A DNA stretch of 64,000 nt, taken from positions 36,427 to 100,426 of the forward strand of contig CAYGKV010000002.1 of assembly GCA_964350885.1 (NCBI GenBank), given 5' to 3'. Source of the stretch: an uncultured Candidatus Saccharibacteria bacterium. Its GTDB lineage: Bacteria > Patescibacteriota > Minisyncoccia > Phycocordibacterales > UBA2100. A program made the translations under genes and the position numbers. Under the pieces are notes generated by a model, which did not search any database, was not told where the DNA came from, and saw only the letters and a list, made by a program, of their open reading frames with translations. Positions 2,264-21,470 of the stretch are shown piece after piece; the first letter of the stretch is position 1, and each line of letters opens with the position of its first letter.

Positions 2264-3079
2264 CTAGCGGATTTCGTACGTTACAGTTACGTTTGAGATA
2301 ATCTTGTTCTGACCGACCGGTATTTCCGGAGCAGCAGCCTTGGATTCCATCGCCATCATCACGTCGCCGCCACCGCGTCCGTAGGCGTACGGCATTGGAT
2401 AGCTGCCGTTCTCACTGAAACCGACGACACGCACGATTCGCACACCGAGCGATTCCGCAAGTACCTCGGCCTTTGCCTTCGCTTTTGCAATTGCCTTGTC
2501 GCGCGCCTCTGCCTCAAGCGCATCTTGATCGTCAATAGTGAATGAAAGACCAGAGACCGAAGAGGCACCGCGGGAGCCGACACCACTAAGCAAGTCCCCC
2601 GCCTTTTTCGTGTCGCGGACTTTGACCGTGAGCGTCTGAGAGACTTGGAATCCGCGAAGCGTTTGTTTACCAGGCGGACAGTAACCTCCCGAACATGCCG
2701 CATTGATGTAGTCGTATTGCGGGTAGACACTGTAATCCGTCGTCTGAATGTCCTTCTCATCGATCCCCTCTTTCTTCAAATACGCGATAATATCGTTGCC
2801 TTTCTTGGTTGCGACATCTTGTGCATCCTTCACCTCCTTCGCCTCCTCCTGGATCGTGACCGAGAAAGTCGCTGTATCAGGTACCGCAAATACTTCGCCG
2901 TCACCCGAGACACTGATGCTGTTGGTAGCCGCTACGCCACTCCCGATGAAACGAAGACCTTTGAGCTCGCCCACGGATGCAATGAGGAGAAAAAGTGCCA
3001 AAAATCCAAGGGCGGCCGCGCCCATCGTGCGCGGCCAGTGGGTTGCATTGATAATTTTGTCTGCAGTTTGTCCATCCAT
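2264..3079 (-). CDS. SIMPL-domain (DUF541, YggE-like) periplasmic protein
   Basis: Signal/TM at N-terminus. Long-range similarity to the 26 kDa periplasmic immunogenic protein family, supported by the VSGLSFTIDD...AIAKAKAKAEVLAESLG pattern. Confidence 0.75.
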   Translation of the reverse strand: MDGQTADKIINATHWPRTMGAAALGFLALFLLIASVGELKGLRFIGSGVAATNSISVSGDGEVFAVPDTATFSVTIQEEAKEVKDAQDVATKKGNDIIAYLKKEGIDEKDIQTTDYSVYPQYDYINAACSGGYCPPGKQTLRGFQVSQTLTVKVRDTKKAGDLLSGVGSRGASSVSGLSFTIDDQDALEAEARDKAIAKAKAKAEVLAESLGVRIVRVVGFSENGSYPMPYAYGRGGGDVMMAMESKAAAPEIPVGQNKIISNVTVTYEIR

Positions 3080-5389: not shown

Positions 5390-5468
5390 CTGGGGTGGTT
5401 GATGGGGCTCGAACCCACGACCGCCGGTACCACAAACCGGAGCTCTACCAGCTGAGCTACAACCACCA
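5390..5468 (-). tRNA. tRNA-His (anticodon GTG), CCA encoded, G-1 present
   Basis: Cloverleaf folded by hand: G-1 + GTGGTTG acceptor, D-arm GCTC/AGCTGGTA/GAGC, anticodon arm CCGGT-TTGTGGT-ACCGG, T-arm GTGGG-TTCGAGC-CCCAT, discriminator C, CCA. The extra 5' G pairing with C73 is the His hallmark. Confidence 0.9.
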
Positions 5469-5476
5469 TTCTGCGA

Positions 5477-5983
5477 CTATATAATTAAACCTTGAGCACG
5501 TCCATCGTCATAATGATGCACGATGTAGTGACAATTCCGACAGAGCCACGCGAGATTACTCAATGCGTTATTTCTTCGATCCTTGTCTTTGTGATGGACC
5601 TCAATAACGCGCTCGTCCTTCGTCTCGCATAATTCGCACACGGCCTCTCTTCCCGCTCGCTTCATAATACTTCTATACGATCCCCCACCATGCTGCCAAT
5701 TTGCATGTCGTGCCCCGCTAAACTCTTTGTTTCGCCAAATCGCTTGACAAGACTTGTCACAAAAGTATTTCTTGCTCTTTGAAGCGTTGATGTACTTTGG
5801 CGTGCGGTACACATCTTTTCCGCACCCTTCGCATATAAGCCACTTCCCCGTCCGCGCTGCCTCATGCTGACATTTTGCGGAACAATATTTTCCGTGCCCA
5901 TAAGACAGGTGCGATGGTTTGACAGTGAATATACTGTCACATTTTTTACATACAACCGCGACTCGGCTTCTCTTCCGTGCCAT
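5477..5983 (-). CDS. HNH endonuclease with N-terminal Cys4 zinc-ribbon repeats
   Basis: C-terminal HNH motif EVHHKDKDRRNNALSNLAWLCRNCH, plus several CxxC...CxxC pairs upstream. The stop lies 8 nt from the tRNA-His 5' end. Confidence 0.85.
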   Translation of the reverse strand: MARKRSRVAVVCKKCDSIFTVKPSHLSYGHGKYCSAKCQHEAARTGKWLICEGCGKDVYRTPKYINASKSKKYFCDKSCQAIWRNKEFSGARHANWQHGGGSYRSIMKRAGREAVCELCETKDERVIEVHHKDKDRRNNALSNLAWLCRNCHYIVHHYDDGRAQGLII

Positions 5984-6055
5984 GAGTTGATTATAGCAGG
6001 AAAGGTTGACGCTAAGGATTGTGGAATTAAGAACCTGCGAGAAACCCGATGGAAT

Positions 6056-7156
6056 CTAGCGCATTATCTCCTCAAGCTGATCCGCTGAAGGATCGTCGAC
6101 AGCCTTGAAAGAAATCCGCCCGATGAGCTGGCCGTACTGCGTGATGACGTTTACGCGCCACTTCCCCGGCGTTATGCCCGTCTTGATCGAATACCCGCGA
6201 TACCCGCCGTCGCGTCCGCCCAGAATCGGAAATCGCAACGTGTCTGTCGTTACCCATCCCGCCTCCGCATCATAACGCTGCCATTCATGCAGAATGATGG
6301 TGGACAAGCCCGACGGCGCAAAGATCGCGCTATATGCGTATGCCGTACTTCCCGAAGCACGATGAAAGGCGGTGTTGTACCGCAGGTATGCCTCATACCA
6401 TGGCACGGGCTCTGCCAAGAGTTGGTAGCTGCCGTTTGGGAGGCGCGTGACACCGTGATACACACCAGCGTCTTTGAGAGCGAGTGGTAGCGGCGGGATC
6501 GCGTTGGTGAAATATAGAATATTAAATACCACAAAGATGGCTGCGATTGAGCGCGCAACCCGCGTACGCTCTTGGAGCACGACTTCGGGAACAAGCCGGT
6601 ACAAAAACGAGAGGAAGAGCGCGATCAACGCAAGGCTCGCGAGGCCACTCGCCAAAAACATGTAGGGGCCGATTTGACGGAAGACGATTGGTAAGAAAAA
6701 GATAAGGAATGAGAAGAGGACGGTAAAAAATATCGAGATCTGAAATGCAAATTTCATATACAAACGCACGAAACGCTCATTTCCCAGGAGGAGCGCCGCC
6801 ACAAGGATCACAAAGATCCAACTCACCGAAAACGCGGCGCTTCGACTATAGAGCGAGAGGTACCCGCTGAAGAGACCGCCAAACGCAAACTGTGCCACAA
6901 CGGGGATGAGAGGGGTCGCTTTTAGGAGCCACGGCTGTTGCAATCGTCCGCTCGTAATCAAATTGATGGCGATGATACAGCCCGCTGCGATTGCGAGATA
7001 TGAAAAGAGGAGCACGTGACTCGACCACAGATCAACACGGCGCAATAGAATGAGGTTGTCCAACACAAACCCCGCGACGAGCGCGAAGGGGGAGATATAG
7101 CGCATATACCAGCTCGCCAACTCATCCACACTTTTAGGAAGGTATCGTCGAATCAT
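6056..7156 (-). CDS. Integral membrane protein (about 8 TM) with a C-terminal extracytoplasmic domain, possibly DUF2914-like
   Basis: Hydropathy pattern only. C-terminal soluble domain with a YHGVTRL...WYEAY pattern. Confidence 0.55.
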   Translation of the reverse strand: MIRRYLPKSVDELASWYMRYISPFALVAGFVLDNLILLRRVDLWSSHVLLFSYLAIAAGCIIAINLITSGRLQQPWLLKATPLIPVVAQFAFGGLFSGYLSLYSRSAAFSVSWIFVILVAALLLGNERFVRLYMKFAFQISIFFTVLFSFLIFFLPIVFRQIGPYMFLASGLASLALIALFLSFLYRLVPEVVLQERTRVARSIAAIFVVFNILYFTNAIPPLPLALKDAGVYHGVTRLPNGSYQLLAEPVPWYEAYLRYNTAFHRASGSTAYAYSAIFAPSGLSTIILHEWQRYDAEAGWVTTDTLRFPILGGRDGGYRGYSIKTGITPGKWRVNVITQYGQLIGRISFKAVDDPSADQLEEIMR

Positions 7157-7719
7157 GCAGGGTCGCGGTACTGGGGCGGATTTTCTTTTATGCCCGCATG
7201 GTGATTGGCAAGGCGCGTAAGTGCATACAAGAGCGAGGACAGCCGGTTCGCATATGCGCGGCTCGAATCACTCACCGCGCGCTCCCCTGCTTCGTGCAAC
7301 GTAACGAGACGACGTTCTGCTCTCCGCGCAACAGCGCGTGTGATATCAAGCCTTGAGGAAAGTTCGGTGCCGCCCGGCACGAGGAATGTCTTTATCGGCG
7401 GCATCTCGGATTCAATGCGATTGATGAGAACACCGAGCGCCTCGACGCTTGAGAGCGGTATTGATTTTGGAGCTCCCGCGACCTCAGCCTGGAGCGTAAA
7501 AAGGTGATCTTGTACATCGTGCAAGAAAATCTTCACTTTCCTCTCCTGCGTCACAAATTCATCCGGGCATTCTACTTTGCACCATCCGACGAGTGTATTG
7601 AGCTCATCGAGCATTCCGAGACATTCAAAAATAGGGCTCGCCTTAGATGCGCGTTGGCCCGGACCCGAATCAAAAAGCTTCGTGCTCCCTCCATCTCCTT
7701 TACCTGTAAAAAGCGCCAT
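7153..7719 (-). CDS. ATP:cob(I)alamin adenosyltransferase, PduO/MMAB type (start moved to MALFTGKGD)
   Basis: FTGKGDGGST N-terminus and a conserved PduO-type core. The ORF-track start at 7767 would overlap tRNA-Leu. The internal ATG at 7717-7719 sits 2 nt from the tRNA 3' end. Confidence 0.8.
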   Translation of the reverse strand: MALFTGKGDGGSTKLFDSGPGQRASKASPIFECLGMLDELNTLVGWCKVECPDEFVTQERKVKIFLHDVQDHLFTLQAEVAGAPKSIPLSSVEALGVLINRIESEMPPIKTFLVPGGTELSSRLDITRAVARRAERRLVTLHEAGERAVSDSSRAYANRLSSLLYALTRLANHHAGIKENPPQYRDPA

Positions 7720-7720
7720 G

Positions 7721-7804
7721 TGCCCGGGACAGGACTCGAACCTGCACGCCCTTACGGGCTTATCCACCTCAAGGATAAATGTCTACCAATTTCAACACCC
7801 GGGC
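7721..7804 (-). tRNA. tRNA-Leu (anticodon GAG), long variable arm, no encoded CCA
   Basis: 84 nt. Acceptor GCCCGGG/CCCGGGC, D-loop AATTGGTAGA, anticodon loop TTGAGGT, variable arm GCCCGTAAGGGCGT, T-arm GCAGG-TTCGAGT-CCTGT. Confidence 0.9.
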
Positions 7805-7854
7805 ATATTCTGCTGCTCGCCCACTATAGCCAACATTTGGATTTTCTTCAAACC

Positions 7855-8301
7855 CTACTTGGTTTCCTCGGCGACAGAAACCTCTTCTGTCGCGGCAGAC
7901 TCTTCCTCTTTTGCAACAAGCTTGGTCACTCCCGACGCATTCACCATCATGCGTGATCGGCGCAACTGCCGACGCGCTTCGCGGGCAACTTTCTCACGAA
8001 TGAAGTAGAGCTTCGCTCTGCGAACACGCGAGCGTTTTACGATTTCTATTTTGTCGATCATGGGAGAATAGAGAGGAAATATTTTCTCCACGCCAACGCC
8101 ACTTGCAACGCGACGAACCGTGAAAGTACCCCCCGCCTCCGTGCCGTGTTTGCGTGCGAGGACCAAACCTTCAAATGCCTGAAGCCGAACCTTCCCCTTC
8201 TCTTCGATTTTTTGCCATACACGGATAGTGTCGCCCGGCCGTAGATCGAAATTTTTTCGCGCATCCATGTCTACAGATGACGTTTTGACTGCGTTTTTCA
8301 T
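7855..8301 (-). CDS. rplS: 50S ribosomal protein L19
   Basis: RPGDTIRVWQKIEEKGKVRLQAFEGLVLARKHG...TFTVRRV...GVEKIFPLYSP...RRAKLYFIRE matches the L19 consensus. Carries an acidic C-terminal tail. Confidence 0.9.
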   Translation of the reverse strand: MKNAVKTSSVDMDARKNFDLRPGDTIRVWQKIEEKGKVRLQAFEGLVLARKHGTEAGGTFTVRRVASGVGVEKIFPLYSPMIDKIEIVKRSRVRRAKLYFIREKVAREARRQLRRSRMMVNASGVTKLVAKEEESAATEEVSVAEETK

Positions 8302-8346
8302 GTTGCGGCACTATACCATCGGTGCCTATGAAAAACAACTTTTTTG

Positions 8347-8420
8347 TGCGCGCTGAGGGATTCGAACCCCCGACCCTCTCAGTGTAAATGAGATGCTCTA
8401 ACCAACTGAGCTAAGCGCGC
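8347..8420 (-). tRNA. tRNA-Val (anticodon TAC), no encoded CCA
   Basis: GCGCGCT acceptor, D-arm GCTC/AGTTGGTTA/GAGC, anticodon arm TCTCA-TTTACAC-TGAGA, T-arm GGGGG-TTCGAAT-CCCTC. Confidence 0.9.
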
Positions 8421-8558
8421 GATGCTCTCATGCTACCTCGGAATCTCAGACTTTTCCACGCGCGGGGCAGGACACTTTACTGTTGCATCTGCTGATGCGA
8501 TGTGGTTCCTGCAGGCAAACGAGTATAAAACACGAGGTGGTTTGCGTTTTCATCCGTT

Positions 8559-8630
8559 TGCCCTCGGGAGGAATCGAACCTCCATAGCCGGCTTAGAAGT
8601 CCGGAGTTTTATCCATTAAACTACGAGGGC
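8559..8630 (-). tRNA. tRNA-Arg (anticodon TCT), no encoded CCA
   Basis: Acceptor GCCCTCG/CGAGGGC, D-loop AATGGATA containing A20, anticodon arm CCGGA-CTTCTAA-GCCGG, T-arm GGAGG-TTCGATT-CCTCC. Confidence 0.85.
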
Positions 8631-8935
8631 ACTTTACCCCTCCCCCAAGAATCAAATTGCACATAGGTTTTCCTCCTGTGGCAATTTGCACATCTTATCT
8701 CACATTTTTCTATCTCGCCAAGAACTGACTTCCACGACCAATGCCCGGACAACATTCTCGCGACATTTTTGAATTTCTTTTTAGAATCGCGATGGTCAAA
8801 TTCCAAAACAATAGGGTCTTTTTCACCACAATCAACGCACTGTTTGGCGCTCAAATAAAAGAGGAGTTCCTCCCGAATGCGTATCCGATGTCTCTTCTGT
8901 GCTGCGTACAAATCTTCTCTATTCTTGTAAGCCAC
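8621..8935 (-). CDS. HNH endonuclease (small, 104 aa)
   Basis: CVDCGEKD...LEFDHRD...CANCHRRK HNH signature. Its stop codon (8621-8623) overlaps the first 10 nt of tRNA-Arg(TCT). Confidence 0.8.
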   Translation of the reverse strand: MAYKNREDLYAAQKRHRIRIREELLFYLSAKQCVDCGEKDPIVLEFDHRDSKKKFKNVARMLSGHWSWKSVLGEIEKCEIRCANCHRRKTYVQFDSWGRGKVPS

Positions 8936-8980
8936 CCAAAGATTATAACATCGTATTCTAACCCGCGGCGGTCAACGTAA

Positions 8981-9307
8981 TCATCTACTTGGGTCCGTGA
9001 TCGTTTTCCCTCTCGTGGTTGTCAGAAGATCAAACTGCGATTGGCGATTCTCAAATCCACGGAGTGTCACGTCGAGTGCTGCGCGGTCAAGCGCGGATTG
9101 AGGTAGCGTAGACACTTTGCCCGTCCCATTCAAATCATTCAATATCCGCATGAGTCCCAAGACCCCATAAATGAGCACCGCAATAACGATGAGAAAGAAA
9201 CCTGCGAGAAGCGCAGACCAATAGAGGCTCGCGAGCGTGCGGATGCCCTCTGGTTCATGCCGCCCAGCGACAATCACTCTTGTGCTTTTTGTAAGATTGA
9301 ACTTCAT
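8981..9307 (-). CDS. Small membrane-anchored protein at the end of the pilMNO operon (start moved to MKFNLTK)
   Basis: One TM helix. The ATGA stop/start overlap with the upstream pilO-like gene suggests translational coupling. No family assigned (could be PilP-like). Confidence 0.45.
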   Translation of the reverse strand: MKFNLTKSTRVIVAGRHEPEGIRTLASLYWSALLAGFFLIVIAVLIYGVLGLMRILNDLNGTGKVSTLPQSALDRAALDVTLRGFENRQSQFDLLTTTRGKTITDPSR

Positions 9308-9864
9308 GATGAGGCATCGGGAGTTGTTAAGACACGAAGGTAGGCATTCATACGCCAAACCCCCGAGAGGCCCTTCTCGCTAGCGTTTGGGACGTATTCC
9401 ATATCGAGCCTACCGACTGTCGAAGGAAGAGGAAAAGTTTCAAAGAGTTGAAGCACATGCATGAGCGCGGAGAACTTCCCCTGTGCCTCAATGATAAACC
9501 CCGTCGCCACGATCCCTGCACTTGCCGCGGCTTGCGTAGGCGGTGCACTTTCTGGAATCACACTACTGACGGTAACCTTCACGCCTGCAGCTTTTCCTGT
9601 CGTCTCAATCAAGTTCACGATTGACACAACATCCATGCGAAAAATACCCTCGAGCGTGGCTCTCTCTTCTCTTGTATCTTGCGCAATTGAGTGAAGCCGT
9701 ATTGCTGATGTCTCTTTGCTCTCGGATTCCTGGGTCGCCTGCACGTAGAGTGCACGGTCGACTTCATCCGATTGGATGGTCCATGCAAACAACCCCACTG
9801 CTGCCCATGCAAGGAGCGCCATCGGAAAAAGAAACCAAGTAAGACGTGTGATCTTCTTTTTCAT
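9304..9864 (-). CDS. pilO: Type IV pilus assembly protein PilO-like
   Basis: N-terminal TM anchor followed by a periplasmic domain. Positioned after pilM and pilN in a tightly packed operon. Confidence 0.55.
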   Translation of the reverse strand: MKKKITRLTWFLFPMALLAWAAVGLFAWTIQSDEVDRALYVQATQESESKETSAIRLHSIAQDTREERATLEGIFRMDVVSIVNLIETTGKAAGVKVTVSSVIPESAPPTQAAASAGIVATGFIIEAQGKFSALMHVLQLFETFPLPSTVGRLDMEYVPNASEKGLSGVWRMNAYLRVLTTPDASS

Positions 9865-9868
9865 ACGA

Positions 9869-10387
9869 TTAGAATGTTCCTGTGAGCGTGACCGAGAACC
9901 GCCCGCCTTGCGTACCGGCTAAATCTCCAATAGGAATTGACACGGTTTTGAAATACGAATTCGATTGCAGCGTCTGTCGGTACGCACTGACTCCTTCTCG
10001 AGTACTCGCTGCACCAACTATCATAATTTCTCCAGATACGTATCGAATGTGATCGACAAAGACGCCTTTCGGCCGAAGAGAAAGCGCTATCTCTACCGCC
10101 GAGGAAAGCGTCGAGGTCGCGGATAAGAACGGCGAGAGTATCGTCATAAGTGATTGTGCTCGCGCAATCTCAATACGCTCATTTTGTGCTTCAGGTCTTT
10201 TTTCTCCCGAAGACGAGGGGAGGGCTGATCCGGTGTTCCCTACATGGAGTGCAAGGTACATGGGGAGAAGAGCGAACGCCGCAAGCAGTGCAGATACGAT
10301 CGCAACGAGAGAACCAGCGAGAATAAACCGACCTACATACATCCTCCATAGCGCTTTTTGGGCCCCGCGTGGAAGTAAATTGCTCAT
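9869..10387 (-). CDS. pilN: Type IV pilus assembly protein PilN-like
   Basis: LLP N-terminus, a single TM, and a 4-nt overlap with pilM. Confidence 0.6.
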   Translation of the reverse strand: MSNLLPRGAQKALWRMYVGRFILAGSLVAIVSALLAAFALLPMYLALHVGNTGSALPSSSGEKRPEAQNERIEIARAQSLMTILSPFLSATSTLSSAVEIALSLRPKGVFVDHIRYVSGEIMIVGAASTREGVSAYRQTLQSNSYFKTVSIPIGDLAGTQGGRFSVTLTGTF

Positions 10388-11478
10388 AGCGGGAGAGATC
10401 GAAGCGCCAAGCCGATGGCGGTCGCATACTGGAGAGACGTTCGCCGATCGATGGGCGGAATATACTCATTAAAATCACAGACATTCTGCCAGACATCGCC
10501 ATACACAGTCTGAGCATGTACGCGACCGGCAATATATTCCGTGAGACCATTCAAATTCGAGCTACCGCCTACCAGGACTATCCGCTCCACGCGTGTTATT
10601 TGATCACCTTTCTCATTCCTTCGTGTGTCCCAGTAGTGATAGTGCCGTGCGATTTCATCTCCAAATGCAGACGCGACCTTCATGATCGACTCCTGTTCGG
10701 GGGATTTCGTACTGTCGGAAGAGAGAAGCCCTTGTTCATTTTTAAATACCATTGCTTCGTAAGCAGAGAGAGAGGACTTCCCCGTCAGTGCGCGATTAAT
10801 TGCTTCACCCCCGATCTCAACCGTCGAAGTAAAAATAGGAATTCCTTGTTTCAAGACGGCAAATCCTGTACGGGCACGCCCAAAGTCAACGAGCAGCGTG
10901 ATGGGTTCATTTTCTGTGCCATGGGAGATTGCCCGTGCGATAGAGCGCGCCTCAATCTCAAGAGACAAGAGCGTAATTTCGGCAGCTTCAAATGCGGCGA
11001 CATATGTTTCGGCGAACTCACGAGAGAACACGACAACGCCAATCTCTTCACCTACGCCACTATGGCGCTGGATACGATCAAAATCGAACACGGCTGCTTC
11101 CGGGGCAATGGGAACACGGCCCTCAAATTCAAACTCAATCATGTGCAGCACTTCATCGCGCGATACTCCCTCTGGCACATGCATCTCAAAGACGTACGCC
11201 GCTTCTTCGGGAAGCGCTACATGTGCGCAGTCGATTCCCGGAAGACGTTGCTTGACTTTCTTGAGTATTTGCCCCAATGCTTCGACATCTTTGATAGTCC
11301 CATTCACAACTACCCCCTCTGGAAGAAGCTCTTCGCCATACGTCTCCACGCGATAACCGCTTCCGCTCTCCTCACCCAGCACAAGCCATTTGATAGACGA
11401 ATCAGAAACGTCGATCCCCGCCGAACGGGGAAAAATGAGAGAAGGGGTGGGGAACCAGCGCGCGAGCGTGCGCGACAT
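10384..11478 (-). CDS. pilM: Type IV pilus assembly ATPase-fold protein PilM (start may be 11526 or internal Met 11478)
   Basis: Actin-like/FtsA fold signatures (GIDVSDSSIKWLVL, LLVDFGRARTGFAV, IVLVGGSS). Confidence 0.8.
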   Translation of the reverse strand: MSRTLARWFPTPSLIFPRSAGIDVSDSSIKWLVLGEESGSGYRVETYGEELLPEGVVVNGTIKDVEALGQILKKVKQRLPGIDCAHVALPEEAAYVFEMHVPEGVSRDEVLHMIEFEFEGRVPIAPEAAVFDFDRIQRHSGVGEEIGVVVFSREFAETYVAAFEAAEITLLSLEIEARSIARAISHGTENEPITLLVDFGRARTGFAVLKQGIPIFTSTVEIGGEAINRALTGKSSLSAYEAMVFKNEQGLLSSDSTKSPEQESIMKVASAFGDEIARHYHYWDTRRNEKGDQITRVERIVLVGGSSNLNGLTEYIAGRVHAQTVYGDVWQNVCDFNEYIPPIDRRTSLQYATAIGLALRSLPL

Positions 11479-11547
11479 TGTGTGCAAACTCTCCCCAATA
11501 CGAGAACTCGATGTAAACGCCTTCATTAGAGTCTAGTATATCAGCGA

Positions 11548-11880
11548 TCAGCGCAGTTTTGTCCCCGATGTAAGAGGCCGTTCCGGATTAAGAAGAGCGG
11601 CACCTGCCTCATCACTCGCCGCGAGTAACATTCCCTGGCTTACGACTCCTCGAAGGGTTCTCGGGGCAAGATTCGTAATATACGGAAGCTGCTTGCCTAC
11701 CAACTCTTCCGGCTTTTTCCATTCGGCGATACCAGAGACGATTGTACGCTCGCCAAGCTCACCAAAATCCACCCTGCATTTAATGAGCTTGTCCGTCTCC
11801 GGCACCATTTCTGCAGTAATGACCGTCCCGATCCGAATATCGAGTTTTGCAAAATCTTCGTAACTAATTTCTTCATTCAT
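11548..11880 (-). CDS. tRNA-binding protein (EMAP/Trbp111/CsaA-type OB fold)
   Basis: KLDIRIGTVITAE...LIKCRVDFGE...TIVSGI...QGMLLAA is the standalone MetRS-C-terminal-like tRNA-binding domain. Confidence 0.8.
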   Translation of the reverse strand: MNEEISYEDFAKLDIRIGTVITAEMVPETDKLIKCRVDFGELGERTIVSGIAEWKKPEELVGKQLPYITNLAPRTLRGVVSQGMLLAASDEAGAALLNPERPLTSGTKLR

Positions 11881-11981
11881 CCCTGTATTGTAGCGTATCT
11901 CCCAAAAAGAGCGGAGTGTGGCCGTTTGACAGAGCCCTGCGCAGGGCGGCGGCCCGAGCAGAGAAAATTCTCACCATAGAA

Positions 11982-12389
11982 TTATTCGTGCTCTGGAGAA
12001 TGACCATCGGAGCGCATATCTAAATACCGCTGCAAGATAATTGCAGCCGCAGCTGCATCATCGTGTTCATTACCCTTTTCGGCATATCGCGATGCCTCGA
12101 TCGAACTTCCCGCCTCCCATCCGAGCATTATCGGTAACCCGGTGTGCTTTCTCAATTCTCCGACAAACGCTTCGAGGCCTTTGGTTATCGGATTCTCAAG
12201 TCCCGCAAAGGCACGCGTGTCGCCAACGACGATGGTCTCAACACGCTCATCTGCCGCAATGCCTTTCAGATGTGAGAATAATGTATCGTCGTTTGCCAAA
12301 ACTGTCCGTGGAAATGCAATCTTCCCATCTGAATCGGAAACCGCTACACCAACCCGCTTCGTACCATAATCAATTCCAAGGTATTTCAT
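11982..12389 (-). CDS. yqgF: Putative pre-16S rRNA nuclease / Holliday-junction resolvase-like YqgF (RuvX)
   Basis: [19 protein letters not shown] start and a conserved RNase H-like core. Confidence 0.85.
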
Positions 12390-12793
12390 AGAAGTTTCGA
12401 TGTTTTATACACCTCCGGTCTGAATGCTGAAAGCCGGACGATTTTTGTCTCGAGCCCTGCTCGCCGCAAATCTGCCTCCAGATGCTCCACATACTCGCCA
12501 CTCTGATCGTATCCAAGCGCGATACTATCCGGCCGAACGGCAACGATATGCGCGAGATAACCCGTTTCGTCGCCCAGAAGCGCTTCATCAACAAGCTCGT
12601 GTACCGCGACTCGCGCAGTCCGCTCATCTTCCCCGTGCCGCGGAGGCGCCCCCTTCACGCGCGCGACAGAGGAGTCGCGCGCGACAGAAACGATCAGGTG
12701 TGGTTCCGGAGAGAGTGCCCGCGCCTGTCTAAAAAAATCAACATGCCCTTCGTGGATCATATCAAACGTTCCGAAAACCATTATCCGTGCCAT
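12386..12793 (-). CDS. Cytidylyltransferase-fold FMN adenylyltransferase, archaeal RibL type (alternative: TagD-like glycerol-3-P cytidylyltransferase)
   Basis: [13 protein letters not shown] (HxGH nucleotidyltransferase motif) followed by [15 protein letters not shown]...VDEALLG, which aligns well with M. jannaschii RibL. Assigned from memory of the family, not from a search. Confidence 0.55.
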
Positions 12794-12823
12794 TGGACTT
12801 AGAGTATACCGCGCGGGCTTTCT

Positions 12824-13798
12824 TCACGACCGCACATCTGCAACCGCTGATTCCTCGTTAACGCGACTCAACATGATTATGGCGAGGAGGAGAAGGGCCG
12901 TGCCGATCCACTGCCCCGTCACAAGCCCGAGAAACGCTCCGGGAATCGGAGCCTGCGCTATGAAATACGCATTCACGAAAACAGCCGCGAGCGGGAACCC
13001 AAGCTCGGCAATCGTTGCAATCGACGCATTCGTAAACTGCAAACCGTAATAGTACAAAAAGAGTGAAAACACACCGGAGGTGAGTGCGATGATGACGATA
13101 AACAGCCAATCGGTCTGCGTAACAGATGCGATAGACGGAAACGAGTGTTGCGTCGTCGTTAGAATCGCTAGAAAAATAAATGCGATGATGAACCTGAGCG
13201 ACGTAAGTGTTTGGAATGCCGCTGTCCGTAGGACGTATTTACCCAGCACGGTCGAGGCACCCCACAAGACGGCGGCAGTAAGCGCCAAAAGCACTCCCAC
13301 GGTATTCGGATTGAATTCCTCTCCGGCATAGAGCCGCGGCACAAGGTCGGGAAAGCTGATGAGGTACGCGCCCGCAAGTGCCCCTCCGCTCCACAGCCAA
13401 AAATTCTTGTGCAGTTTTTCTCCCAAAAGAAGAACCGCAAGTGTGATCGCAATGAATGGCTGCACTTTTTGTAACAAAATCGATACCGATGGATTCACGT
13501 AGTGAAAAGACTCGGTGAAGGCCACTGATGCGAGAGCCGATCCTCCGATCGCGATTGCGAGCACTGCAGCCCACTCTCGCAGAGAAAGCTTGCGAACGTC
13601 GGCCCAATTGAAGAGGAGGATCGGGATTGCAATCAAGAGCGAGACGCCGTGTTCTGCAAGAACGATGAAATTGGATGAGAGGCCTTCCGTGAGATACGAA
13701 CGAAAGGGCGCATCGGTCGCCCAAAGTGCCGCAGCAAGAAACACAAAAGCCGGGCCAAAGATAGCAATAGAATGCCGCGAGAACATGATGGTAGACAT
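12824..13798 (-). CDS. EamA/DMT-superfamily transporter (10 TM)
   Basis: Two EamA repeats of 5 TM each. The family includes the riboflavin importer RibN. Confidence 0.8.
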   Translation of the reverse strand: MSTIMFSRHSIAIFGPAFVFLAAALWATDAPFRSYLTEGLSSNFIVLAEHGVSLLIAIPILLFNWADVRKLSLREWAAVLAIAIGGSALASVAFTESFHYVNPSVSILLQKVQPFIAITLAVLLLGEKLHKNFWLWSGGALAGAYLISFPDLVPRLYAGEEFNPNTVGVLLALTAAVLWGASTVLGKYVLRTAAFQTLTSLRFIIAFIFLAILTTTQHSFPSIASVTQTDWLFIVIIALTSGVFSLFLYYYGLQFTNASIATIAELGFPLAAVFVNAYFIAQAPIPGAFLGLVTGQWIGTALLLLAIIMLSRVNEESAVADVRS

Positions 13799-13804
13799 TC
13801 TACA

Positions 13805-14146
13805 CTATTCCTTAAAGTACGCCCGGGTCGCTGCGACATCACCGGCGATCGCGCTCCGCAAACTCTTGTCGTCTGCAAACCTCTTGTCGTCTCGAATCTT
13901 TTTTAATAACGCTATCGTCACGCTCCATCCGTACAGATCCTTTGAGAAATCCAGGATGTGAGCTTCCAGCACCTTTCTCTTCTGGTCTGCATACGCAACT
14001 GCTTCATATTCTTCCTCACCGATCTTCACCGTGGCTGCATAAATCCCCGATACCGACGTGTCATCCAACGGAATATTTACGGTTCGATACCCGAGCGCCT
14101 CTGCGCGTGCAGTACCTCTACCCACAATAGCTATATAGAAACTCAT
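13805..14146 (-). CDS. Standalone riboflavin kinase domain (start moved to MSFYIAIVGRG)
   Basis: VGRGTARAEALGYRTVNIP...GIYAATVKIGEEEYEAVAY...EAHILDFSKDLYGW is the RibF C-terminal (flavokinase) signature. The ORF-track start at 14254 would overlap tRNA-Ser. Confidence 0.7.
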   Translation of the reverse strand: MSFYIAIVGRGTARAEALGYRTVNIPLDDTSVSGIYAATVKIGEEEYEAVAYADQKRKVLEAHILDFSKDLYGWSVTIALLKKIRDDKRFADDKSLRSAIAGDVAATRAYFKE

Positions 14147-14155
14147 GGCGGAGGG

Positions 14156-14243
14156 AGTGAGATTCGAACTCACGGTGCCTTGCGACACTCTTGTTTTCAA
14201 GACAAGCGCGTTAGACCTCTCCGCCATCCCTCCCTTACGCCCG
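14156..14243 (-). tRNA. tRNA-Ser (anticodon TGA), CCA encoded
   Basis: 88 nt. Acceptor GGAGGGA/TCCCTCC, anticodon arm CTTGT-CTTGAAA-ACAAG, long variable arm, T-arm GTGAG-TTCGAAT-CTCAC, discriminator G, CCA. Confidence 0.9.
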
Positions 14244-14789
14244 CAGAATATCACGTAGCCAGCTTTTTTCTAAATAGTGCTCCTCGTAGTGACAATTCGG
14301 ACAAACTAGCTCCAGGTTTTCTAACGCATTATTGTCCCGATTTCTGTCTCTGTGATGTACGTGCAATATTTCAACTCTACTATAGCCGCATCGTTCACAT
14401 TTTGTGCCTCGCTGATTGACCAGTCGAATTTTCAAAGCACGCTCACTTACCACCTTGTCTCGAGGTCTGCCAATCTTGTACTTTATACCAGCTCTGTGTG
14501 TATTTGCACATGCCCTGCTACAGGTCTTCGCGTTTTTACTGGCAACAATAGGAGCGCCGCAAACCACACAGGGCATCTCTATTCTTTGTGAAATTCCGTA
14601 GCATAGTAGCCCACAAAACGCCCTGCCTTTGCTGGCTTGAAGCAGGATTGGTCGTCGGTATACGGGTCTATTACAAACAATACAGTTTACGTTAGGGTTC
14701 CTTTTGTATTGCTCAGCCACCCTTCCAGTGTACCACCGACAAACAAAACTCTTCGCACGCGTAAGAATGAGCTGAAAAACGCGATACAA
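14235..14789 (-). CDS. HNH endonuclease with N-terminal zinc-ribbon repeats
   Basis: HVHHRDRNRDNNALENLELVCPNCH HNH motif, plus CIVCN...CGLLC...CVVCG...CSRAC ribbons. Its stop (14235-14237) overlaps the tRNA-Ser 5' end by 9 nt. Confidence 0.85.
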   Translation of the reverse strand: MYRVFQLILTRAKSFVCRWYTGRVAEQYKRNPNVNCIVCNRPVYRRPILLQASKGRAFCGLLCYGISQRIEMPCVVCGAPIVASKNAKTCSRACANTHRAGIKYKIGRPRDKVVSERALKIRLVNQRGTKCERCGYSRVEILHVHHRDRNRDNNALENLELVCPNCHYEEHYLEKSWLRDILRA

Positions 14790-20628: not shown

Positions 20629-21089
20629 ATCGTGTTGAACAAAATAATCCCCGCGGCAACGGAGACGTTCAAAGATTCTTTGCTGCCACGCATTGGGATT
20701 TCGATAATTTCGTCACATTTTTTCCTCAATTCTTTTGATAACCCGCGAACTTCGTTACCGAAGATAAAAAGTGTAGGCTTTTTTATTTTGAATGCACGAT
20801 AATCACCCGCACGCACATCTTGTTCGACCCCGACAACGGTCCACCCAGTATTCTTTAGCTTTGAGATACATGATGTAGGAGCTTTGAAGTATTCCCAAAC
20901 GAGACTCTTCTCGGCGCCAAGTGCTGTCTTTGCGATTTCTTTTTGCGCGCGCCCAAACCTATCGATCGGGGTAGGCGTGTACCCAGAGAGATACACGTGG
21001 GCAACGCCCGCCGCGTCGGCCGTACGAAATATCGAGCCGACGTTGTGCGAACTTCGAATATTGTGCAACAAAACTGCTATTTCTTTCAT
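20622..21089 (-). CDS. SpoU/TrmH-family RNA 2'-O-methyltransferase
   Basis: HNVGSIFRTADAAG and LIFGNEVRGLS...IPMRGSKESLNVSVAAGI are SPOUT class motifs. Confidence 0.8.
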   Translation of the reverse strand: MKEIAVLLHNIRSSHNVGSIFRTADAAGVAHVYLSGYTPTPIDRFGRAQKEIAKTALGAEKSLVWEYFKAPTSCISKLKNTGWTVVGVEQDVRAGDYRAFKIKKPTLFIFGNEVRGLSKELRKKCDEIIEIPMRGSKESLNVSVAAGIILFNTIQ

Positions 21090-21124
21090 GTCGGCACCAT
21101 ATCACGGGGGTGCTATAATCGCGG

Positions 21125-21470
21125 CATGCTTTCATTATTCCCCGAAATTCTTTTCCTCGCTCCAGTATCCGCGCTTCTTTTACGCCTCGCTCTCGCTTGT
21201 GTATTGGGGTATGCGGCGTGGAAACATGTTTCTCACGAAGAGAGTGTCGTTCGCGCGTTCAGTGTTTTCGAAATTGCGACTGCCGGAGTACTTATCGCTG
21301 GAGTGTGGACACAGGGCGCAGCCATCGCCGCGCTCGCTGTAATCGCCATACACGTTGCTATCCCACGGTTACGAACTGCAGCGCTCGGGACGACGCTGCT
21401 CTCGCTCGCCATTTCACTTTCGCTCGTTGTAACCGGAGCCGGCGCTCTCGCCTTCGACCTCCCGCTGTAG
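21125..21470 (+). CDS. Small 3-4 TM membrane protein (possibly DoxX-like); start at MLSLFPE
   Basis: Hydrophobic helices. The upstream part of the track ORF is probably non-coding. Confidence 0.4.

Follow-up and report, generated by a model that had tools for sequence, protein, structure and literature searches.

Why should three HNH endonuclease genes within some 10 kb each sit directly against the 5' end of a tRNA gene? The question is raised by a 64,000-nucleotide (nt) stretch of contig CAYGKV010000002.1 from an uncultured Candidatus Saccharibacteria bacterium, which was analysed at its full length and is called the window in the following. The genes, here HNH1, HNH2 and HNH3, precede tRNA-His, tRNA-Arg(TCT) and tRNA-Ser, respectively. 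A preliminary description had offered three readings: a selfish homing-endonuclease family that inserts 5' of tRNA genes, co-transcribed HNH-tRNA units, or a role in tRNA 5' processing. Our sequence comparisons make it likely that the three genes are free-standing homing-endonuclease genes from two HNH families, with each lineage specialised on one tRNA gene. The first reading is favoured by family-wide tRNA linkage, sporadic occupancy, syntenic empty sites, incongruence between the identities of HNH genes and of their flanks, and homology to phage genes.

The three junctions in the window

The three open reading frames (ORFs) exist as first described, at 5477-5983, 8621-8935 and 14235-14789, and all lie on the minus strand immediately 5' of a tRNA gene of the same strand (three out of three, comparing the ORFs with ARAGORN and Rfam calls). 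HNH1 (5477-5983, minus strand) starts with ATG and encodes 168 amino acids (aa), with two CxxC...YCSxxC zinc modules followed by the HNH domain. Its TAG stop ends at 5477, which leaves 10 nt to position +1 of tRNA-His(GTG) and 9 nt to the encoded G-1 at 5467; the close placement noted earlier stands, but the distance is 9-10 nt and not 8 nt. The tRNA itself (5391/5394-5466, minus strand; ARAGORN and Rfam, 62.9 bits) has an encoded CCA. HNH2 (8621-8935, minus strand, GTG start) is a minimal HNH endonuclease of 104 aa that reads into tRNA-Arg(TCT) (8558/8559-8630/8631, minus strand; ARAGORN and Rfam, 67 bits for 8559-8630). Its 3' end is ...GTG CCC TCG TAG, in which the final G of GTG is nucleotide 1 of the tRNA and CCC TCG TAG are nucleotides 2-10. 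The TAG at 8623-8621 is thus U8-A9-G10 of the tRNA, which bears out the earlier statement of a stop inside its first 10 nt.

HNH3 ends with TAA at 14237-14235, followed by a single base and then by position +1 of tRNA-Ser(TGA) at 14233 (14146/14149-14233, minus strand; ARAGORN and Rfam, 61.9 bits; encoded CCA). The adjacency is therefore real, while the supposed overlap with the first 9 nt of the tRNA has to be replaced by a 1-nt gap. The HNH3 frame is open back to a TTG at 14789, but its true start is probably the GTG at 14720, because the 99 % identical protein P0121 has 161 aa; this version spans 14235-14720 (minus strand, 161 aa). The zinc-ribbon repeats ascribed to two of the three proteins are found in HNH1 and HNH3, with two CxxC...CxxxC modules each. 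All three adjacent tRNAs are intact and uninterrupted (62-67 bits, Rfam), the ORFs lie outside the mature tRNA save for their last 10-15 nt, and the HNH genes are embedded neither in introns nor in inteins.

ARAGORN calls seven tRNA genes in the window, six of which were confirmed by Rfam with identical boundaries; the other four, as stated before, have no HNH partner. Searches of the 64-kb window with family profile hidden Markov models (HMMs) gave no further member of the two families, and a motif scan gave no additional canonical HNH motif. For an estimate of chance we took the 74 ORFs that have 80 aa or more and do not overlap one another, and counted those whose end falls between -35 and +40 nt relative to the 5' end of a tRNA on the same strand. 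Only four of them do, and three are the HNH genes (hypergeometric p ~6e-5), in agreement with the earlier view that the placement exceeds chance. The fourth ORF (20943-21470) is probably not a real gene; the opposite strand encodes an overlapping SpoU methylase.

HNH families and their tRNA genes

All three products are of the HNH type according to Pfam and PHROGs. HNH3 exceeds the Pfam cut-offs (PF01844, 27.0 versus 21.4 bits; PF13392, 24.9 versus 24.8 bits), HNH1 and HNH2 fall slightly below them, and the latter two match PHROG HNH families with E-values of 4e-20 (phrog_1271) and 3e-23 (phrog_2255). HNH1 and HNH3 are paralogues from one family (28-32 % identity), while HNH2 represents a separate, shorter and minimal HNH family. 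Invariant positions are C116, C119, H130, H131, D133, N143, C148, N150, C151, H152 and H156 in the HNH1/HNH3 family (31 members) and C33, D35, C36, D47, H48, C82, N84, C85 and H86 in the HNH2 family. The signature of the HNH superfamily, namely the catalytic His, the structural Asn, the metal-binding His and two CxxC zinc pairs, is present in both. Confident AlphaFold2 models (predicted local distance difference test score of 86 for HNH2 and 88.7 for the second model) predict a strand-strand-helix arrangement at the motif. Foldseek comparison of these two models with the PDB gave nothing significant, the best weak matches being the Gme HNH nickase and Cap5, and profile searches against PDB sequences returned weak matches of the HNH core alone, to a group II intron maturase and IscB.

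The closest annotated relatives are homing-type HNH endonucleases of phages. HNH1 and HNH3 match phrog_1271 and genes annotated as "intron-encoded HNH endonuclease" in crAss-like and other phages. HNH2 is homologous to gp102 of mycobacteriophage PegLeg (tblastn, 43 % identity over 94 % of the query, E 2e-17), a member of the same family that overlaps a tRNA-Met by 10 nt, just as HNH2 does tRNA-Arg. Likewise, gp96 of PegLeg stops 3 nt before tRNA-Tyr and an HNH gene of Vibrio phage D254 stops 2 nt before a tRNA. The phage proteins of the PegLeg type are longer (~150 aa), bear a zinc-ribbon extension at the N-terminus and are encoded in multi-tRNA arrays, whereas the HNH2 type of the candidate phyla radiation (CPR) is minimal (~103 aa), is found at a solitary tRNA-Arg(TCT) of the chromosome and has a conserved promoter motif on its 5' side.

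The linkage to tRNA genes extends far beyond the window. Counting HMM matches from other genomes, metagenomes and the window itself (homologue loci outside the window carry L-numbers), 149 of 189 abut or overlap a tRNA 5' end. For HNH1, a profile scan with one genome per species yielded 435 relatives, all from Patescibacteria-type assemblies, and 80 loci were kept. At 74 of the 80 tRNA-His(GTG) genes in these HNH1-selected loci, an HNH1-like gene lies directly 5' on the same strand; gaps range from -23 to +36 nt and are exactly -15 nt in 27 cases. All four independent HNH3 homologues (61-84 % identity) abut tRNA-Ser(TGA), with gaps of +4, +3, 0 and -15 nt. HNH2 has at least 1960 relatives of ~103 aa in the protein collection, which are 65-78 % identical among the best 120 and whose C-termini (KPL, KPS, MPS, APVA) correspond to codons of a tRNA acceptor stem. 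In a sample of 80 metagenome loci, close HNH2 relatives stand directly 5' of 22 out of 24 tRNA-Arg(TCT) genes, and 19 end exactly at tRNA nucleotide 10. Distant relatives (42-57 % identity) occur in high-G+C soil bacteria and in phage-like tRNA arrays (L110, L132, L133, L135, L148) and are placed likewise, often with the 10-nt overlap, before tRNA-Gly(CCC), -Arg(TCG), -Pro(TGG), -Leu(CAA), -Val(TAC), -Thr(GGT), -Lys(TTT) and -Gly(ACC). The pairing of subfamily and tRNA is kept across very divergent hosts, with HNH genes in some genomes only, and the reading frames often end on conserved tRNA nucleotides, either U8-A9-G10 or positions 13-15.

This family-wide linkage refutes one alternative, a coincidence in compact genomes where ordinary small genes end before tRNAs for want of intergenic space. 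Patescibacterial genomes are indeed gene-dense, and several other genes of the window overlap or abut each other. However, apart from the three HNH genes no credible gene among the ~74 ORFs abuts a tRNA 5' end, and the homologues do so on unrelated contigs, each subfamily with its own tRNA; we regard the probability of a coincidence as negligible.

The 5' position is not without exceptions. In five loci (L017, L019, L044, L073, L077) the tRNA-His is upstream and the HNH gene follows ~85-130 nt downstream, and in L100 the HNH2-type gene is convergent with tRNA-Arg. Because such downstream or convergent arrangements with the same tRNA make up ~10 % of the cases, linkage to the tRNA gene as such seems to matter more than the 5' side. 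At these loci, a TATAAA or TATAAC box of its own precedes the tRNA by 9-12 nt.

The strict tRNA specificity of each subfamily would also be expected of a ribonuclease or toxin that cuts the tRNA molecule itself, with the neighbouring gene supplying a replacement. Such a function would be analogous to the Septu system, whose HNH protein PtuB cuts tRNA-Tyr (PMC13096335). No partner ATPase or immunity gene was found beside any copy, though, self-cleavage would be lethal since the adjacent tRNA is an ordinary resident gene, and the combination of zinc-finger arrays with an HNH domain is typical of DNA-binding homing enzymes (phrog_1271). A tRNA-directed toxin is therefore very improbable.

Two class assignments were rejected. 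Membership in the SegB class of GIY-YIG enzymes is ruled out, as Pfam, NCBIfam and PHROGs show HNH matches alone; the HNH genes may nevertheless work like SegB without belonging to its class. RNA-guided nucleases of the IscB/OMEGA type are characterised by a RuvC domain, a bridge helix and a dedicated guide RNA. The proteins of the window have 103-168 aa, reach only 19-23 bits with the IscB model (cut-off 175) through the HNH core alone, and the RNA next to them is an ordinary resident tRNA.

Three further observations concern the families and their tRNAs. First, six metagenome contigs with 60-67 % G+C (L119, L121, L130, L137, L139, L160) encode proteins of 300-350 aa directly 5' of tRNA-Gly(CCC) that consist of two tandem copies of a zinc ribbon plus HNH2-like core in one chain. 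These single-chain pseudo-dimers are reminiscent of the monomerisation of LAGLIDADG homing enzymes. Second, HNH2-like genes (~40 % identity) are found directly 5' of tRNA-Pro(TGG) in the flanks of two HNH1 loci (L051, 136-381, minus strand; L056, 2373-2579, minus strand), so that one genome may hold both families at different tRNAs, like the window. Third, an ATG (sometimes GTG or TTG) occupies the three bases before +1 of tRNA-His in nearly all of L001-L160 (5467-5469, minus strand, in the window), and in the group with the -15 overlap it is an in-frame Met codon of the HNH gene. We dropped the idea that this triplet is part of the HNH element, as it is also present at unoccupied tRNA-His genes and at those of phage-like arrays. 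It belongs to the tRNA, with the G as the encoded G-1 and the A and U probably reflecting a preference of the transcription start or of the RNase P leader.

Empty sites, flanking genes and decay

The HNH genes are sporadic at their tRNAs. In the loci chosen for HNH1, tRNA-Arg(TCT) is occupied in 0 of 14 cases, and in those chosen for HNH2, tRNA-His is occupied in 0 of 7. This bears on the proposed role in tRNA 5' processing, which finds no support: most of the related genomes lack the genes, and some of those present are downstream or convergent. Enzymes for 5' processing such as RNase P or HARP are expected to be ubiquitous in a lineage and to act on all pre-tRNAs. The HNH proteins are sporadic, are tied to one tRNA per subfamily and have no similarity to the RNase P protein or to the PIN-type HARP.

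For HNH2, presence and absence at a fixed site can be followed in syntenic relatives. Locus L161 has the order CTP-transferase, RuvX, tRNA-binding protein, PilM, three small and presumably pilus-related genes, tRNA-Arg, tRNA-Val, L19, tRNA-Leu, CobA-like gene, DUF2914, HNH1 and tRNA-His, and is syntenic to the window with flank identities of 46-85 %. Here the last small gene after pilM is followed by TTGACC, a 17-nt spacer, TAGGAT, 8 nt and tRNA-Arg(TCT), free of HNH2; the same holds for L024 and L167, and the common form of unoccupied relatives is TTGACC, 17 nt, TAGGAT or TACGAT, 8-16 nt and tRNA-Arg(TCT). By comparison with these three empty sites, the TTGACC at 8970-8975 (minus strand) of the window is what remains of the promoter of the resident tRNA-Arg(TCT), namely its -35 box. 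The HNH2 element starts nine bases after this box. The HNH genes are found in the narrow gap that separates a resident tRNA gene from its promoter.

The empty sites also speak to the question of whether the tRNA is an invaded resident or cargo of a mobile HNH-plus-tRNA cassette. Cassettes are suggested by the HNH2 relatives inside phage-like tRNA arrays, including those of PegLeg and Vibrio phage D254, and HNH genes have been tied to the spread of tRNA arrays (PMC5966550, PMC8421152). Moreover, D-stem variants of tRNA-Arg correlate with HNH2, as co-transfer of the tRNA 5' half would give: of the occupied tRNA-Arg(TCT) genes, 24 of 26 have U:A or A:U as base pair 13:22, compared with C:G in 13 of 18 unoccupied ones (window and L016-L167; Fisher 1.2e-5, ignoring phylogeny). 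We take this difference as a lead only; the tRNA 5' half may have been co-converted, or the polymorphism may confer immunity. Against travelling tRNAs, the same syntenic tRNA positions exist with or without the HNH gene (L161, L024 and L167 versus the window), the order CobA-like gene, DUF2914, [HNH1], tRNA-His is conserved, and no CPR locus examined contains a second copy of the same tRNA. We consider cassettes unlikely. Integrative elements leave a displaced copy of the tRNA end at tRNA 3' ends. Upstream of HNH2, no displaced copy of the tRNA 5' end, and hence no target-site duplication, is visible.

Identity comparisons with the flanks are incongruent for L024, L004 and the HNH2 loci. In L024 the flanks are 72-88 % identical to those of the window but HNH1 is just 49 % identical, whereas in L004 the flanks reach 63-64 % and HNH1 75 %. 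Similarly, HNH2 remains 66-74 % identical where PilM has 31-36 %. Together with the empty sites, these incongruences belong to the evidence that favours homing.

Several points weigh against the homing interpretation. Within the window's own clade (L002/L161), HNH1 is 73 % identical and the flanks 73-85 %, and because HNH1 identity tracks flank identity there, vertical inheritance is indicated for this clade. The HNH proteins are also more conserved than many neighbouring housekeeping proteins, a pattern compatible with a recent horizontal spread and no less with a host function under purifying selection. Unoccupied counterparts of the HNH1 and HNH3 sites were seen in more distant genomes with different neighbours and are not strict empty sites, and no within-species polymorphism of presence and absence was seen, the only other contigs of this strain, two found via the L19 protein of the window, being identical to it. 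In addition, nuclease activity, cleavage site and homing are predicted from comparative evidence, the promoters discussed below are consensus matches, and protection of an occupied gene from cleavage is hinted at solely by the 13:22 difference in the D-stem, with statistics that ignore phylogeny.

Some of these points would equally suit domesticated host genes with a tRNA-tied function, for instance in transcription control, processing, or repair and maintenance of tRNA genes, for which adjacency would ensure co-expression. The conservation of HNH2 is unusually high (65-78 % identity among the best 120 relatives) and exceeds that of PilM, RuvX and the neighbouring tRNA-binding protein, the catalytic residues are invariant, the architecture of promoter and start codon is conserved, and a tRNA operon and an HNH gene are co-regulated in Anabaena (PMC8421152). 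Nevertheless, most related genomes have no such gene at the tRNA in question (0/14 and 0/7), close syntenic relatives manage without them as well, side and orientation vary (L017, L019, L100 and others), degraded copies exist, and the closest annotated relatives are phage homing-type endonucleases. Domestication is thus quite improbable, and homing endonucleases remain our preferred interpretation.

Degraded copies were found in several loci. The HNH1-like copy of L038 has an in-frame TGA at a near-invariant glycine (GGA to TGA, 3052-3054), which could denote a decaying copy, a sequencing error or a host that reads UGA as Gly; the neighbouring ORFs are normal in the standard code. In L131 and L113 the HNH copies are split by frameshifts. 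Two loci have two tandem HNH1-like genes before one tRNA-His (L058, 3004-3459 and 3500-3952; L050, 2598-2975 and 3007-3441), which suggests repeated invasion or duplication at one site. Invariant catalytic and zinc-binding residues next to damaged copies are signs of an active but decaying element.

Promoter architecture, proposed spread and known systems

All three HNH genes have a TGn-extended -10 box that ends 6 nt before the start codon. For HNH1 this is TGcTATAAT (5990-5998, minus strand) before the ATG, and for HNH3 TGgTACACT (14727-14735, minus strand) before the GTG, with homologous sequences in L167, L169 and L173 (TGGTACACTGG / TGGTATAGTGG / TGGTATACTGG). In front of the GTG of HNH2 the box is part of a longer motif, GGGTTAGAAT-N5-TGtTATAAT (8942-8964, minus strand). 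The common form of this motif, GGGTTAGAA-N5-TGnTAyAAT-CC, is shared by ~22 HNH2 elements from hosts with 29-62 % G+C. A hairpin or inverted repeat in it (GGGTT...AAYCC) was considered and dropped, as covariation counts were no different from those of shuffles or slid controls. Most members of the families have the -10 box at about -6, and in the HNH1 family a TTTACA often lies 17 nt upstream of it. Given this spacing, we predict a leaderless mRNA or one with a very short leader.

Regarding the downstream tRNA, ORF and tRNA leave no room for a promoter in between in the cases of HNH2 and HNH3, so that these tRNAs are probably transcribed together with the HNH message and freed by RNase P. The co-transcribed units of the preliminary description are therefore likely, on account of the missing promoter room and the -10 box before each HNH gene. 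HNH1 differs in having a second promoter-like site, TGGACG-17-TATAGT (5476-5504, minus strand), a consensus match whose -10 hexamer overlaps the HNH1 stop. It could drive tRNA-His alone, with a start ~3 nt before the tRNA, and its TATAG, which is provided by the last HNH1 codons (L-I-V/I-stop), is kept in the closest relatives L001-L008.

How would such genes spread? By analogy with SegB, which spreads through the tRNA cluster of phage T4, the enzyme would cut the same tRNA gene in genomes that lack the HNH gene; following DNA uptake, an occupied copy would serve as the template for recombinational repair, and the nuclease gene would be copied in. With the element would come an extended -10 promoter located ~6 nt before the start codon, and translation would use a leaderless or near-leaderless mRNA. 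The tRNA would come from the same transcript and be released by RNase P, so that the host would lose nothing, and the position 5' of a tRNA would be a safe harbour, as an intron or intein is for other homing endonucleases.

In a more far-reaching and rather doubtful version, the tRNA 5' position would be a third kind of safe harbour besides introns and inteins, with the nuclease mRNA forming the pre-tRNA 5' leader, RNase P freeing the tRNA at no cost to the host, the stop inside the tRNA limiting the nuclease, and the D-stem 13:22 variant serving as immunity allele. Such a limit could arise since a stop codon within the mature tRNA (U8-A9-G10 or 13-15) would be separated from the message by the RNase P cut; the non-stop message would yield no nuclease, so that the potentially toxic enzyme would be made from unprocessed transcripts only. 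Homing endonucleases of introns and inteins likewise lower the cost of a selfish gene at a conserved essential gene by removal at the RNA or protein level, but here the gene would be removed when RNase P trims the tRNA 5' leader in the ordinary way.

Among known systems, the closest functional parallel may be SegB of T4, a free-standing GIY-YIG homing endonuclease of the tRNA gene cluster that recognises the T-psi-C motif (PMC2330249; also PMC13096335). In both cases the gene is located among or beside tRNA genes, and related genomes may keep the tRNA region without it. SegB recognises a conserved tRNA-gene motif and, through gene conversion, propagates both its own gene and adjacent tRNA DNA, for which we propose a parallel here. 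In contrast to this phage enzyme, the genes described here encode HNH enzymes of bacterial chromosomes at single essential tRNA genes, are flush with the tRNA 5' end and keep to one tRNA species per subfamily; their activity and target are predicted from sequence.

HNH genes are a recognised feature of tRNA arrays in phages, plasmids and mycobacteria, where they were proposed to spread the arrays (PMC5966550, PMC6582537, PMC6409571). The present arrangement is a variant of the HNH genes known from phage tRNA clusters, although the precise overlap of HNH gene and tRNA is not mentioned in the phage and mycobacterial tRNA-array literature examined. A bacterial counterpart is all8564 of Anabaena 7120, an HNH homing-endonuclease gene that is conserved upstream of a long tRNA operon and is induced with the tRNAs (PMC8421152). 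In that case, however, a horizontally transferred plasmid array of 20 to 40 tRNAs is concerned and abutment was not reported; a search with HNH2 in the plasmid collection gave no match, so that no sequence link to all8564 was detected. For the CPR case, literature searches gave nothing specific on i) single chromosomal tRNA genes being colonised across Patescibacteria, ii) the rule of one subfamily and one tRNA, iii) the base-precise abutment with stops at U8-A9-G10 or positions 13-15, or iv) the start-proximal promoter.

If our interpretation is correct, nucleases of the homing type have invaded individual, essential tRNA genes on chromosomes throughout the CPR, beyond phage tRNA arrays, and their base-precise placement borrows universally conserved tRNA nucleotides as a stop codon. 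The pairs of one nuclease and one natural target (His, Ser-TGA, Arg-TCT, Gly-CCC, Pro and others) would then be a tractable set for studying the recognition of tRNA-gene DNA by HNH and zinc-finger proteins, and would allow asking whether RNase P processing replaces splicing for a selfish gene. The elements would also trace recombination between organisms that have tiny genomes and pili of the competence type.

The overlap with tRNAs also has a consequence for annotation. HNH2 is uncalled in the public contigs that are identical to the window (L178, L179), and its exact sequence is absent from a collection of 15 billion proteins. The HNH2-type family is probably under-annotated, as gene callers seem to drop ORFs that run into tRNAs, which leaves an annotation gap.

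Upstream of the promoters of the HNH1 family we observed a motif that resembles a DnaA box, at 6019-6028 (minus strand) in the window and ~40 nt upstream of the start in L002, L003, L006, L049-L051 and L075. It reads ATATCCACAA in these loci and aattccacaa in the window, compared with the DnaA consensus TTATCCACA, and may represent a site for a regulator, the left boundary of the element or a portion of the target.

Finally, tRNA-Leu(GAG) at 7720-7804 (minus strand) was called by ARAGORN but is absent from the Rfam run at gathering threshold. An ORF at 7153-7767 with a GTG start overlaps this call, and for this reason a later ATG is probably the start of the CobA-like gene.

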